A stretch of 64,000 nucleotides of DNA, from the NCBI GenBank assembly GCA_965237525.1, contig CBDEFO010000008.1, forward strand, positions 160,001 to 224,000. The letters are read 5' to 3'. Position numbers and translations under genes: made by a program. Below are positions 11,864 through 23,461 of the stretch, piece after piece. The notes beneath the pieces are model-generated. The model saw only the letters and a program-made list of their open reading frames with translations. It was not told the DNA's origin and made no database searches. Numbering within the stretch: position 1 is the first letter of the stretch; each line of letters begins with the position of its first letter. This DNA is from Candidatus Latescibacterota bacterium (GTDB lineage: Bacteria > Latescibacterota > CBDEFO01).

Positions 11864-13129
11864 ATGAAACTATTTTCAAAGATTGCATGGGAAAGATTAC
11901 ACGAAAAGGCAACAAGCCTCCACGAACAAGGTCGGTATGAGGAAGCAGTTAAGTTTGCCAAAGATGCTTTGAAAATAGCTGAGGAAACTTTCGGTCCAGA
12001 ACACCCCAATATGGCGATCTCCCTGATCAGTCTGGCGAGACTTTACGAAGATCAGGCCAAGTATGCCGAGGCTGAGCCCCTTTGCTGGCGGTCACTGGCA
12101 ATAAGGGAAAAAGCCCTTGGAGAAGACCATCCTGCTGTGGCGCAATCCCTGAACAATCTGGCAAGCCTTTATCATTCCCAGGCCAAGTATGTCGAGGCTG
12201 AGCCCCTTTACAAACGGTCACTGGGAATATGGGAAAAAGCCCTTGGGCCAGATCACCCCGATGTGGCTCCTGTGTGGGAGAATATGGCGGGACTTTACAG
12301 AGATCAGGGCAAGTATGCTGAAGCTGAGCCACTTTACACGCGGTCACTGGCAATAAGGGAAAAAGCCCTTGGAGAAGACCATCCTGCTGTGGCGAGATCC
12401 CTGGACAATCTGGCAAGCCTTTATCATTCCCAGGCCAAGTATGTCGAGGCTGAGCCCCTTTTCAAGAGAGCACTGGAAATAAGGGAAAAAGCTCTTGGCA
12501 AAGACCATCCTGATGTGGCAACTTCACTGAACAATCTGGGGGAACTTTACAGAGCTCAGGGCAAATATGTCGAGGCTGAGCTCCTTTACTGGCGTTCACT
12601 GGCAATAACGGCGAAAGTCCTTGGGTCAGACCATCCTAATGTGGCAACTTCACTAAACAATCTGGCGTTACTTTATTATTCCCAGGGCAAGTATGTCGAA
12701 GCTGAGCCCCTTTACAGGCAGGCACTGGCAATAAGGGAGAAAGTCCTTGGGTCAGACCATCCTGATGTGGCAACTTCACTGAACAATCTGGCGTTACTTT
12801 ATTATTCCCAGGGCAAGTATGTCGAAGCTGAGCCCCTTTACAAGCAGGCACTGGCAATAAGGGAAAGAGTCCTTGGGCCAGATCACCCCGATGTAGAGTA
12901 CTCTCTGAGCGGTCTGGCGTTACTTTATGATTCCCAGGGCAAGTATGCCGAGGCTGAGCCCCTATACAAGAGGTCACTGGCAATAAGGGAGAAAGCTCCT
13001 GGGAAAGACCATCCAACCACGGCGACTTTGTTGGAGAATATGGCAAAGCTTTACAGGAAGATTGGAAAGGAAGATGAAGCGAAAAGGTTGGACGAGCGTG
13101 CAGAAGGAATTCGTTCAAGAAACCAGTGA
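11864..13129 (+). CDS. Kinesin-light-chain-type TPR protein, copy 1 (8 internal 42-aa repeats, no signal peptide)
   Basis: Repeats of SLNNLA.LY..QGKY.EAEPLY.R.LAI.EK.LG.DHP. Confidence 0.92.
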   Translation: MKLFSKIAWERLHEKATSLHEQGRYEEAVKFAKDALKIAEETFGPEHPNMAISLISLARLYEDQAKYAEAEPLCWRSLAIREKALGEDHPAVAQSLNNLASLYHSQAKYVEAEPLYKRSLGIWEKALGPDHPDVAPVWENMAGLYRDQGKYAEAEPLYTRSLAIREKALGEDHPAVARSLDNLASLYHSQAKYVEAEPLFKRALEIREKALGKDHPDVATSLNNLGELYRAQGKYVEAELLYWRSLAITAKVLGSDHPNVATSLNNLALLYYSQGKYVEAEPLYRQALAIREKVLGSDHPDVATSLNNLALLYYSQGKYVEAEPLYKQALAIRERVLGPDHPDVEYSLSGLALLYDSQGKYAEAEPLYKRSLAIREKAPGKDHPTTATLLENMAKLYRKIGKEDEAKRLDERAEGIRSRNQ

Positions 13130-13183
13130 TGGCAATATCACACAAATTAGCCTTCGGAGAATTTCCATTCTACGGATGACGCG

Positions 13184-13224
13184 ATGGCAAGGATAAGGGA
13201 CATCGGTATAAAAATAGGCGACCT
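13184..13224 (+). pseudogene. 41-nt dmpA 5' stub fused out of frame to TPR copy 2
   Basis: MARIRDIGIKIGDL matches the start of 23516; the junction falls in a shared GGCGACCT. Confidence 0.8.
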
Positions 13225-14333
13225 CCCTGAACAATCTGGCGGAACTTTATTATTCCCAGGGCAAGTATGTCGAAGCCGAGCCTCTTTATAAGCGGGCACT
13301 GGCAATAAGGGAAGAAGTCCTTGGCAAAGACCATCCCGATGTGGCGACCTCACTGGACAGGCTGGCGGGACTTTATTATTTCCAGGGCAAGTATGTCGAA
13401 GCCGAGCCTCTTTATAAGCAGGCACTGGCAATAAAGGAAGAAGTCCTTGGCAAAGACCATCCCGATGTGGCGACCTCACTGAATTGTCTGGGGTTACTTT
13501 ATCATTCCCAGGGCAAGTATGTCGAAGCCGAGCCTCTTTATAAGCAGGCACTGGCAATAAAGGAAGAAGTCCTTGGCAAAGACCATCCCGATGTGGCGAC
13601 CTCACTGAACAATCTGGCGGAACTTTATTATTCCCAGGGCAAGTATGTCGAAGCCGAGCCTCTTTATAAGCGGTCACTGGCAATATACGAGAAAGCCCTT
13701 GGCAAAGACCATCCCAATGTGGCGAACTCCCTGAACAATCTGGCGGAACTTTACAGAGCTCAGGGCAAGTATGCCGAGGCTGAGCCACTTTATGAGCGGT
13801 CACTGGCAATATACGAGAAAGCCCTTGGCAAAGACCATCCCGATGTAACTTACCCCCTGAACAATCTGGCGTTGCTTTATAAGACTCAGGGCAAGTATGC
13901 CGAGGCTGAGCCTCTTTATAAGCGGGCACTGGCAATAGGGGAAAAAGCCCTTGGCAAAGACCATCCCAATGTGGCGACTTCCCTGAACAATCTGGCGGGA
14001 CTTTATAAGACTCAGGGCAAGTATGCCGAGGCTGAGCCACTTTATGAGCGGTCACTGGCAATAAAGGAAAAAGCCCTTGGCAAAGACCATCCCAACCTGG
14101 CGACCTCCCTGAACAATCTGGCGGGACTTTATAAGACTCAGGGCAAGTATGCCGAGGCTGAGCCTCTTTATAAGCGGGCACTGGCAATAAAGGAGAAAGC
14201 CCTTGGCAAAGACCATCCCAGTGTGGCGACTGTGTTGGAGGATATGTCGGAGTTTTACGAGAAGATTGGTAAAGAAGATGAAGCTAAGAGGTTGGCCGAA
14301 CGTGCGAGAGGAATTCGTTCAAGAAGCCAGTAA
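13225..14333 (+). pseudogene. TPR protein copy 2, 5'-truncated (8 repeats; could be translated from GTG 13341)
   Basis: Begins mid-repeat with no N-cap, RBS or promoter; C-cap EDEAKRLAERARGIRSRSQ is intact. Confidence 0.8.
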
Positions 14334-20759: not shown

Positions 20760-21805
20760 ATGAGGGCACTTTCAAAGTGGGAAAGACTATCGAAAAGGCA
20801 GTAACGTTCCGCGAACAAGGTCAGTATGAGAAAGGAGTTAAGGTTGCTAAAAAGGCTTTGAAAGTAGCTGAGAAAACTTTCGGTCCAGACCATCCCTATG
20901 TGGCGACCTCCCTGAACGGTCTGGGGTTACTTTATTATTCCCAAGGCAAGTAGGACGAGGCTGAACCCCTTTTCAAGCGGGCACTGGCAATGAGGGAAGA
21001 AGCCCTTGGAAAAGATCATCCCGATGTGGCGGGCTCACTGGGCGGTCTGGGGTTACTTTATTATTCCCAGGGCAAGTATGACGAGGCTGAGCCCCTTTAT
21101 GAGCCAATATGGGAAAAAGCGCTTGGGACCACCCCAATGTGGCGGCTGGACAGTCTGGCGGATCTTTACAGGCTCAAGGCGAGTATGAAGGCTGAGCCCC
21201 TTTATAGTCCCTGAGAAAGCGCTCGGAAAAAATTCCCGATGGATGACCCAGACAATCTGGCGGAACTTTATTATCCCCGATGTCGAAGCCGAGCCTCTTT
21301 ACAAGCGGGCACTGAAGAACATTTGGTTCTGGCGGAATCTACTTTTTATTCCCAGGGCAAGTATGTCAGGAGCAACTGGCAATATGACCTTGGAAAAGAT
21401 TCTAGGCTGAGAGATCAGGGCTTTAGCCTCTTTATAAGCGGTCACTGGCAATATGCGAAAAAGGGAATCCCTATGTGGCGAAGTTACTTTATTATTCCCC
21501 AAGTATGTCGAAGTCGGCCTCTTTATAAAGACTGACATCCTTGGCAAAGACCATCCCGCTGTGGCGGTCTCCCTGACCGGTCTGGGGTTACTTTATTATT
21601 CCCAGGGCAAGTATGTCGAGGCTGAACCCCTTTTCAAGCGGTCACTGGCAATAAGGGAAGAAGTCCTTGGCAAAGACCATCCCGATGTGGCGACCTCACT
21701 GAACAATCTGGCGGAACTTTATTATTCCCAGGGCAAGTATGTCGAAGCCGAGCCTCTTTATGAGCGGTCACTGGCAATATAGACGAAAAAGCCCTTGGAA
21801 AAGAC
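20760..21805 (+). pseudogene. TPR copy 5, heavily disrupted (pseudogene or consensus error)
   Basis: RBS and ATG present; early TAA/TAG stops and many indels within recognisable repeat sequence. Confidence 0.7.
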
Positions 21806-22105
21806 CACATAGAGTTTAGCCAGGATGTGGCGCTCCTCACTAAAACAGTCTGGGGAATATACTTTATAGATTCAATCGGGGGCAGGGCAATGTATGACGA
21901 GGCTGAGGAGGTCTGCCCCGAATAATTCTATCGGCGGGTTCAATCGGGGACTCAAGAGAAGGGAGAAGCTCCTGTATACTGGGCGAACACCTGGGGAAAG
22001 CATTCATCTGTTGTAGGGGCAGACCCGTGTGTCTGCCCTGAAATGATGACTACAATGTGAGGAGGAACCCTTCCTTGATTCCTTGAACCGAAAGGAGCAC
22101 CAGAT

Positions 22106-23461
22106 ATCAGCGCATTTTCAAAGTGGGAAATACTAATCGAAAAGGCAGTAACGTTCCGCGAACAAGGTCAGTATAAGAAAGCAGTTAAGGTTGCTAAAAA
22201 GGCTTTGAAAGTAGCTGAGAAAACTTTCGGTCCAGACCATCCCGATGTGGCGATCCCTGGACAGTCTGGCGGTACTTTACAGAGATCAGGGCAAGTATGA
22301 CGAGGCTGAGGCACTTTATGAGCGGTCACTGGCAATATGGGAAAAAGCCCTTGGAAAAGACCATCCTGATGTGGCGACCTCCCTGAACAATCTGGCGGAA
22401 CTTTATGAATCTCAGGGCAAGTATGTGGTGGCTGAGCGCCTTTATCCGGTCATGAAAGCCCTTGGAAAAGACCACCCCAATGTGGCGATCTGGACAGTCT
22501 GGGCGGTACTATTATCCAGGGCAAGTATGACGAGGCTGAACCCCTTTTCAAGCGGGCACTGGCAATAGCCGAGAAAGCCCTTGGAAAAGACCATCCTGAT
22601 GTGGCGACCTCCCTGAACGGTCTGGCGTTACTTTATGATTCCCAGGTCAAGTATGACGAGGCTGAACCCCTTTATGAGCACTGGCAATAGCCGAGAAAGC
22701 CCTTGGAAAAGACCATCCGGATGTGGCGATCTCACTGGACAGTCTGGCGGTGCTTTATGATAGTGAGGGCAAGTATGCCGAGGCTGAGCCCCTTCACAAG
22801 AGCACTGGGAATATGGGAGAAAGCCCTTGGGAAAGACCATCCCAGAGTGGCGACCTCCCTGAACAATCTGGCGTTGCTTTATGATAGTCAGGGCAAGTAT
22901 GCTGAGGCTGAGGCACTTTATGAGCGGTCACTGGCAATAAAGGAAAAAGCCCTTGGAAAAGACCATCCCGACGTGGGGACCTCCCTGAACAATCTGGCGG
23001 GACTTTACCATGCTCAGGGCAAGTATGCTGAGGCTGAGGCACTTTATGAGCGGTCACTGGCAATATGGGAAAAAGCCCTTGGAAAAGACCATCCTGATGT
23101 GGCGACCTCCCTGAACAATCTGGCGGAACTTTATGAATCTCAGGGCAAGTATGTGGTGGCTGAGGCACTTTATGAGCGGTCACTGGCAATAAGGGAAGAA
23201 GTCCTTGGAAAAGACCATCCCGATGTGGCGACCTCCCTGAACGGTCTGGGGTTACTTTACAGAGATCAGGGCAAGTATGCCGAGGCTGAACCCCTTTTCA
23301 AGCGGGCACTGGCAATAAGGGAAGAAATCCTTGGCAAAGACCATCCTGATGTGGCTACTGTGTTGGAGAATATGGCGGAGTTTTACGAGAAGATTGGTAA
23401 AGAAGATGAAGCTAAGAGGTTGGCCGAACGTGCGAGAGGAATTCGTTCAAGAAACCAGTGA
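22106..23461 (+). pseudogene. TPR copy 6; 5' half disrupted, clean repeats from about 22800 to the stop
   Basis: ATC in place of ATG after the shared leader; several indels; C-cap intact. Confidence 0.72.

Follow-up and report, generated by a model that had tools for sequence, protein, structure and literature searches.

The window analysed here, a stretch of 64,000 nucleotides from a Candidatus Latescibacterota genome, carries at 11864-23461 six tandem TPR gene copies that hold 40 of the genome's 78 repeat units. The array arose by tandem amplification of one stand-alone gene for 42-residue kinesin-light-chain-type TPR repeats. To its left lies an intact MFS transporter gene on the reverse strand (10278..11474), the 5' end of which has been co-duplicated with the TPR gene; to its right is an intact peptidase S58 (DmpA-like) gene on the forward strand (23516..24565). 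All six copies are read from the forward strand. W1 (11864..13129; 421 aa) contains eight units (12002-13009) and has lost its leader in frame, with the RBS and ATG retained. The 5' stub of an S58 peptidase gene (13129..13224, forward strand) is fused out of frame to a repeat, with 8 nt of microhomology (GGCGACCT) at the joint, and the 5'-truncated W2 (13217..14333) has seven whole units and one partial unit followed by a C-cap. A duplicated flank (14356..15679) consists of an S58 copy with a frameshift, 79 nt from the end of the TrkA gene and 163 nt of the MFS 5' end, with a junction at 15517. W3 (16096..16599; 167 aa, two units) is leaderless through a second deletion, different from that of W1, and the flank after it (16599..17676) comprises an S58 stub, a junction at 17263 and 414 nt of the MFS 5' end. 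W4 (18011..19585; 524 aa) is the sole complete copy within the window, with a signal-peptide-like leader (about residues 1-23), an N-cap, ten units (18206-19465) and a C-cap. Beyond another flank (19608..20344; S58 stub, junction near 20228, 116 nt of the MFS 5' end) is W5 (20760..21907), which is leaderless and has a frameshift, an in-frame stop and many small deletions, lesions that reflect either decay or assembly noise. W6 (22106..23461), also leaderless, has ATC where a start codon is expected and frameshifted 5' units; its last four units are clean. With only one intact copy out of six, the others being truncated, leaderless or broken, decay may account for part of the amplification seen here. 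A REP-like palindrome stands upstream of the TPR gene at 17927..17954 (forward strand) and also at 11779, 16002, 20667 and 22013.

The flank copies are 93-100% identical to one another, and one duplication junction of the window recurs on contig C4. Since the divergence from the sister species, a single gene lying between the MFS and S58 peptidase genes has been duplicated, carrying parts of its flanks along. In the genome of that species (G001), 7/7 TPR copies are open frames with leaders. The signal-peptide-like leader is ancestral, with amplification of the genes in one genus and two losses of the leader; truncated copies are present, and copy C4b has its N-cap in common with the leaderless lineage. 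Domain searches of W1 and W4 returned TPR only (Pfam TPR_12, E 2e-200; TPR_10, E 7e-171), and the remaining copies consist of leader, caps and repeats. W4 matched no curated family at cut-off in PADLOC and NCBIfam.

An earlier sequence-only reading had reported arrays of 126-nt repeats at this locus, and these are present, with 40 ungapped units in the window. The units are less alike than its term 'near-identical' implies: pairs drawn from 32 clean units are 81% identical on average, with values from 70% to 99%. All of the codon variants that it listed can be found. The seven forms of the Asn-Asn pair occur among the 40 units (GAC AGT three times, GGC GGT twice, AGC GGT, ACC GGT, AAC ATT and ATC AGT once each, and AAC GGT four times), as does every codon given after HP, VA and PLY and within LAI. 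The duplication of neighbouring repeats holds for single units (98% at 18458/18584) and for a 252-nt pair in W4 (99% at 18962/19214, with an exact run of 158 nt), but the second pair, proposed for W1, is weak (88% vs 70-72% for neighbours).

Variation is dominated by six codons: 3, 6, 13, 16, 17 and 35, numbered from His-Pro. The earlier list of variable codons overlapped with these only in part, since it left out the most variable ones (13, 16, 17 and 35) and included moderately variable ones (9, 10, 29 and 33). Its statement that the third position mostly holds applies to codons 3, 10, 13, 29 and 33 but is no general rule; third-position diversity is 0.42 at the six variable codons vs 0.19 at framework four-fold sites. 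The same six sites top the variability in 65 units of G001 and in 120/120 homologues, which are unrelated proteins. The six-codon pattern is a trait of the whole repeat family and not a peculiarity of this locus.

For the window test, sites were chosen on 36 other units, independently of the window. At the six codons, pN is 0.556 and pS 0.265 (corrected ratio 3.1), against a framework pN of 0.096 and a framework dN/dS of about 0.3; these dN/dS values come from counting methods only and from paralogous units, not from a population sample. Several four-fold sites are invariant in 68/68 units, which may mean constraint, and constraint on synonymous sites would inflate the ratio. Neutral simulations matched the observed diversity in 0/400 cases at each of four mutation rates, including one triple that of the four-fold sites; when the site set is taken from the literature instead, the test is weaker, with P=0.055 at the highest of the rates. 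Synonymous differences are similar within the variable codons (0.31 four-fold, 0.12 two-fold) and in the framework (0.18 and 0.17). Local hypermutation of whole codons was considered and rejected, as the variable codons show no overall rise in synonymous differences. The codon alleles over 133 units connect by single steps, the exception being one codon-16 allele. Speaking against selection, synonymous diversity does not peak beside these codons as hitchhiking would predict (rho 0.11, P=0.51).

In the predicted structure, each unit forms two helices of 16 and 19 residues, the helix-A/helix-B arrangement of 42-residue repeats. Positions 3-17 lie on helix A (pLDDT 92) within a 140-degree arc and, by alignment, coincide with the cargo-contacting residues of KLC1 and with the groove positions general to TPRs (match to KLC1, E 2.5e-70). 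Five of the six variable positions match or adjoin known groove positions; position 35 belongs to helix B. The KLC1 alignment predicts peptide binding in the concave groove. As in fungal NLR-type repeats, dN/dS exceeds 1 at concave-face sites, with a ratio of about 3.

Linkage between sites is short: r2 is 0.31 for sites 1-3 nt apart and about 0.05 for those more than 10 nt apart (P=0.0005), and this decay within about 10 nt indicates that the repeats recombine in short tracts. Four-gamete pairs make up 73-86% beyond 3 nt. The number of units per gene ranges from 2 to 17, so that recombination and change in repeat number, both features of fungal NLR-type repeats, are seen when genes are compared. 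For 111/133 units the nearest neighbour is in the same genome, and only 3/51 units find a counterpart at 94% in a different gene, despite the closely similar flanks; the repeats are no longer collinear between copies. The shuffling and diversifying selection favoured by the earlier reading are supported by the ratio at independently chosen sites, the linkage decay and the mapping to helix A.

The same reading held in reserve DGR-type adenine mutagenesis acting in trans, with a template repeat writing the variable codons. Some features do recall this mechanism. The Asn-Asn variants alter positions 1-2 and keep position 3, there is a weak A excess at codon positions 1-2 (P=0.045 in the window, 0.073 in the genome), and DGRs can act in trans (PMC10907252). 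In Asn and Lys codons, however, a change at position 1-2 always falls at an A. Variation is not, as had been proposed, centred on adenine: 28.3% of deviations fall at a consensus A vs an A content of 27.0%, and of 241 deviations in the six codons, 173 affect bases other than A. At third positions, As vary less than the remaining bases do, and the suggested check of synonymous columns gave no A bias, with synonymous As unchanged in 68/68 units at codons 31 and 33 and in 67/68 at codon 34. None of 5998 ordered unit pairs is template-like, with at least 80% of mismatches at A (maximum 60%), and no template repeat was found outside the arrays, all 88 profile matches in the genome falling within its four TPR loci. 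Searches of this genome, which is 96.6% complete, gave no match to RVT_1 or group II RT and none to Avd (bAvd, PF22296). The two RTs of G001 belong to retron II-A and DRT8; two longer tblastn matches of its retron RT in the present genome are IS3 ends. These outcomes are the ones that the earlier reading had named as refuting the DGR variant. Rejected on five tests, DGR mutagenesis keeps practically no probability in our assessment. The locus resembles DGR targets (PMC10907252) in that variation is concentrated at the first two codon positions of a surface that binds, or here is predicted to bind, a ligand; it differs from them in that variation is not adenine-specific and that neither a template nor an RT or accessory gene was found. 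Nor is the target a C-terminal C-type lectin fold. Asn-rich binding repeats can thus mimic the DGR signature, and invariant synonymous As provide a quick test.

Strain alleles or long-read errors stacked as a tandem array could also produce false variable codons. W5 and W6 are rich in small indels, the genome has 4% contamination, and no public-run contig spans the whole array. Seven public runs share 9-49% of words, and four of them were compared as contigs only, in which rare variants are invisible. Such an artefact is nevertheless highly unlikely, as errors would not recur at six particular codons both in another genome and in 120 unrelated proteins, and the junctions are distinct, one of them recurring on C4. 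As a rough guide, contig depth in run X3 is 33-34 in multi-copy segments vs 9-14 in single-copy flanks. Within W4, the contigs list no other letter at 95% likeness, and one paralogue-like row at 90%. Depth in X3 drops to 0.75-8 over parts of W5 (21182-21565 and 21758-21949), and two S58 stubs are without cover in X4; low or absent cover proves nothing. A biological rival is relaxed constraint only, under which six exposed positions drift while synonymous sites are constrained, and recombination driven by the repeats leaves behind tandem copies that decay. It would fit with variation at the same six positions in every relative, the damaged or leaderless state of most window copies, the overall pN/pS of 0.62 and the possible constraint on invariant four-fold sites. 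We regard it as improbable: six-codon diversity exceeds that of the neutral simulations also when their rate is triple that of the four-fold sites (0/400), exposed helix-B positions vary far less than the six codons, damaged copies still keep framework ratios of 0.34-0.49, and the copies in G001 are all open with leaders.

We consider it likely that a tandemly amplified TPR gene has had its groove codons diversified by selection together with recombination between repeats. Variants would arise by ordinary point mutation, without a dedicated mutator; selection would favour new residues at the six predicted-groove codons, and recombination in short tracts would reshuffle them among repeats. The leader is probably a signal peptide of the Sec pathway, in which case complete copies would be exported, and each repeat may form one rung of a groove holding an extended peptide.

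Similar regimes are known from other TPR repeats. Those of fungal NLRs (Podospora Pa_2_10340; PMC4986451) are likewise of kinesin-light-chain type, with high internal identity, repeat-number change, concerted evolution and positively selected sites on concave helices. The fungal proteins are cytoplasmic and combine NB-ARC or NACHT with an effector domain, neither of which is found in the present copies; these are stand-alone and bacterial, with an ancestral signal-peptide-like leader and whole-gene amplification. Internal identity here averages 68-82% aa per gene, below the 85% aa cut-off of PMC4986451, although single unit pairs reach 98-99% nt identity. The Ectocarpus NB-ARC-TPR genes (PMC3341825) share 42-aa modules, shuffling, diversifying selection, and gene birth and death, with inactivated modules as a possible reservoir; they are eukaryotic, carry NB-ARC and use exon shuffling, whereas recombination here is intron-free and also occurs within units. 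Bacterial NLR-like NB-ARC/TPR proteins (bioRxiv 10.1101/2020.01.06.895854), to which many of the 120 homologues belong, have the same repeat type, high internal conservation and the same six variable positions. Rapid bacterial diversification was merely suggested in that preprint; here it is measured, in proteins with no ATPase or effector domain. The 42PR family (kinesin light chains, Podospora 42PR and BKLC; PDB 7ai4, 3nf1, 4y6c, 5o01) shares the repeat length, Asn-Asn ladder and fold, but the KLC array is fixed and non-shuffling and its cargo is known. Our literature search, which covered few subscription journals, found no stand-alone exported bacterial 42-aa TPR arrays, a weak negative.

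As to the ligand, our guess, about evenly balanced between right and wrong, is a fast-changing foreign protein met at the envelope, such as a competitor toxin or phage protein; the family would then supply binders that work as decoys or in an immunity-like way. Immunity proteins with Sel1-like repeats, which act in the periplasm against secreted toxins, form tandem, exported, diversifying arrays, some of them decaying. The present genes are similar in being tandem helical-repeat paralogues with export predicted from the leader, and differ in repeat family and in that no cognate toxin is seen beside them. A bolder and rather unlikely reading is that one uncultured genus maintains an exported, NLR-free, antibody-like repertoire against foreign proteins in its cell envelope; recombination would rewrite the groove, and the truncated and leaderless copies would act as donor cassettes and cytoplasmic versions. 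In silent-cassette gene-conversion systems of the vlsE or pilS type, the donor copies are silent and sequence passes one way only, into the locus that is expressed.

Shuffling combined with selection, a regime known for the immune-type TPR repeats of fungi and algae, is here measured in a bacterium, and in proteins that lack a signalling domain and are seemingly exported. Should the groove code prove real, the 133 units found in nature would amount to a ready six-position library for TPR binder design, and would give a handle on what these cells recognise.

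The source genome (4.58 Mb in 8 contigs, 96.6% complete) carries, in the window on contig C8, six tandem copies of a TPR gene, W1 to W6 (window 11864-23461). They lie between an MFS gene on the left (10278-11474) and a peptidase S58 gene on the right (23516-24565), spaced by stubs of both; W4 is the sole complete TPR copy in the window. Each 126-nt unit encodes a 42-residue kinesin-light-chain-type TPR (Pfam TPR_10/TPR_12; KLC1 match E 2.5e-70; the name 42PR is from PMC5642895), with codons numbered here from His-Pro. An ungapped scan found 78 units in four genome loci, 40 of them in the window, and a profile search of the genome gave 88 whole or partial matches, all within the same four loci. 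Units with stops, frameshifts or truncation (8 in the window, 2 elsewhere) were left out, so that 32 window and 68 genome units were counted. A 28-nt GTAG-type REP-like palindrome lies upstream of each copy that has a 5' region (window 11779, 16002, 17927, 20667 and 22013), with 59 matches genome-wide when up to 4 mismatches are allowed. Elsewhere in the window, two DDE transposase (DUF772) copies (47227-48627 and 51488-52888) lie on either side of an LVIVD-repeat gene that carries a secretion tail, in a composite-transposon-like arrangement, a cluster at 34253-51238 encodes large exported proteins with FlgD-Ig/secretion tails and cohesin and dockerin domains, and a perfect 25-nt tandem repeat of 3.2 copies occupies 56952-57030.

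Every codon listed in the sequence-only reading was found among the units, which proved less alike than the near-identity it described (mean identity 81%). Variation is greatest at codons 3, 6, 13, 16, 17 and 35, followed by the Asn-Asn pair (codons 9 and 10) and codons 29 and 33. Contrary to that reading, third positions do not generally hold: their diversity is 0.42 at the six codons versus 0.19 at four-fold sites of the framework. Copy 4 shows a clear duplication of a 252-nt pair; in copy 1 the signal is weak.

For the window, test sites were chosen beforehand on 36 units from outside it. At the six codons pN is 0.556 versus a pS of 0.265, a corrected ratio of 3.1 (from counting methods on paralogues, whose synonymous sites may be constrained), and framework pN is 0.096. 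Gene by gene, across the 14 that have at least 4 units, the ratio is 1.5-4.8 at these codons and 0.15-0.49 in the framework; the same six sites lead in 65 units of the sister-species genome, G001. In neutral coalescent simulations, none of 400 runs at any of four rates attained the diversity observed; when a literature site set was used, P ranged from 0.0025 up to 0.055 at the highest rate.

In a predicted W4 structure (pLDDT 92.4, pTM 0.87), helix A spans unit positions 2-17 and helix B 21-39. Positions 3, 6, 9, 10, 13, 16 and 17 cover a ~140-degree arc on an ideal helix. With an offset of 4, unit positions 6, 9, 13, 16 and 17 become TPR positions 2, 5, 9, 12 and 13, and unit 3 corresponds to 33; PMC1261162 names these six as the most variable concave-face positions. 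Alignment with KLC1 places groove residues given in PMC3314626 at unit positions 6 (K340/K382), 9 (N259/N301/N343), 10 (N302/N344/N386) and 16 (R266). Position 35 lies at the end of helix B in the model.

Linkage between sites falls off within ~10 nt, and all four gametes occur in 73-86% of window site pairs more than 3 nt apart, to which recurrent mutation contributes. At the same MFS-S58 position G001 has a single 441-aa gene; at a second locus it has six genes versus two in the source genome. The five copies of the MFS stub differ from one another at 0-1 of 116 nt and from G001 at 3-4, and S58 stubs are 93-98% alike mutually and 90-91% to G001. Since the stubs are closer to one another than to G001, amplification of the array likely postdates the species split. 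The S58 stubs (window 14356-15000, 16599-17263, 19608-20227 and 23516-24100) are mosaic, drawn from at least two haplotypes (6-nt indel), and are more diverged than the MFS stubs; dS to G001 is 0.27 for S58 versus 0.04 for MFS. Three duplication junctions share at most 1 base and one shares 8 nt. On contig C4, locus L001 (47733-52594) holds two array cassettes adjoining IS3 elements and sharing the 15517-type junction.

A 94% match in another gene exists for just 3 of the 51 array-derived units, collinear matches between genes reach 88% at best, and for 111 of 133 units the nearest neighbour lies within the same genome. Of the 88 codon alleles at eight sites, 52 also occur in G001, and these account for 476 of 544 unit-sites; judged from these sequences, an old allele pool is being dealt out again, together with some new alleles. 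Both species carry the multi-codon allele blocks YSLSG and Y/F-P-LNN (window 12884-12930 and 13836-13880; loci L024 and L025), which suggests that old variants have persisted and been moved by conversion. At locus L002 (contig C4, 310097-311048), a relocated leaderless TPR copy, with a stop and a cut 3' end, begins exactly at a REP-like palindrome, hinting at REP-linked movement.

The excess amino-acid change at the six codons and the linkage decay between sites support the proposal of shuffling plus diversifying selection, which we consider the probable explanation of the array. Constraint on synonymous sites would inflate the ratio, and no hitchhiking peak of synonymous diversity was seen. 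We judge relaxed constraint unlikely, and an assembly artefact more improbable still. Synonymous differences within the variable codons look like those of the framework, which speaks against a mutator acting locally. DGR-type adenine mutagenesis (features as given in PMC10907252) had been offered as a lesser alternative, and a slightly higher variability of A columns at codon positions 1-2 (P=0.045 window, 0.073 genome) favours it; in Asn and Lys codons, however, every change at these positions necessarily falls at A. Variation is not centred on A overall (28.3% of consensus deviations versus 27.0% A columns), and 173 of 241 deviations at the six codons are at non-A bases. Synonymous As are the discriminating sites because a DGR would alter them freely, yet they are nearly invariant: kept at codons 31 and 33 in 68/68 units and at codon 34 in 67/68. 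No template/target-like pair appeared among 5998 ordered unit pairs, and neither RT nor Avd was found in the 96.6% complete source genome. We regard this source of the variable codons as exceedingly improbable. G001 has two RTs, with no repeat adjoining either: a retron II-A (L027:1387-3273; RT 3' end cut by IS3, NDT gene present) and a DRT8 defence RT (L028:775-2298).

A homologue search gave 7146 matches among 8000 scored. The best 120, which include cyanobacterial NB-ARC-TPR proteins, fusions with CHAT or kinase domains, and one protein from a brown alga, have their highest mean within-protein variability at the same six positions, and 72 of them have internal identity of at least 70%. Thus, as far as sequence comparison goes, the hypervariable pattern is a property of the family and the expansion is local. 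An N-terminal query matched 8 of 151 phylum genomes: the two from this genus gave 32 and 30 matches, and six others 1-2 each. Read by eye, these six encode a similar stand-alone protein with a hydrophobic N-terminus (four) or an NB-ARC-like protein (two).

A basic-then-hydrophobic N-terminus, unstructured or low-confidence in the W4 model, is present in 7/7 G001 copies and 4 source-genome copies; we infer that it is a Sec signal peptide. Two different in-frame deletions removed this leader while leaving RBS and start in place, one in W1 and one in the W3/W5/W6/C4a/C4c lineage, with different breakpoints (window 11864-11935 and 16096-16165; L001:4928; L002 ~5950). Cytoplasmic versions may have been favoured or tolerated. 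C4b, a copy on contig C4, has a full leader followed by the leaderless lineage's N-cap.

The array combines amplification, recombination and excess amino-acid change on helix A. In the mechanism we propose, the protein would be exported, its groove would bind a ligand, and a changing foreign ligand would select groove variants. Fungal NLR TPRs (PMC4986451) and the NB-ARC-TPR genes of Ectocarpus (PMC3341825) have been described as evolving under the same regime; for bacterial NLR repeats, high internal conservation was noted and diversification suggested (bioRxiv 10.1101/2020.01.06.895854). The window TPR genes would work like these fungal, algal and bacterial NLR sensor domains, but they are not NLRs. 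The feature is real and its probable mechanism already known; the setting is new.
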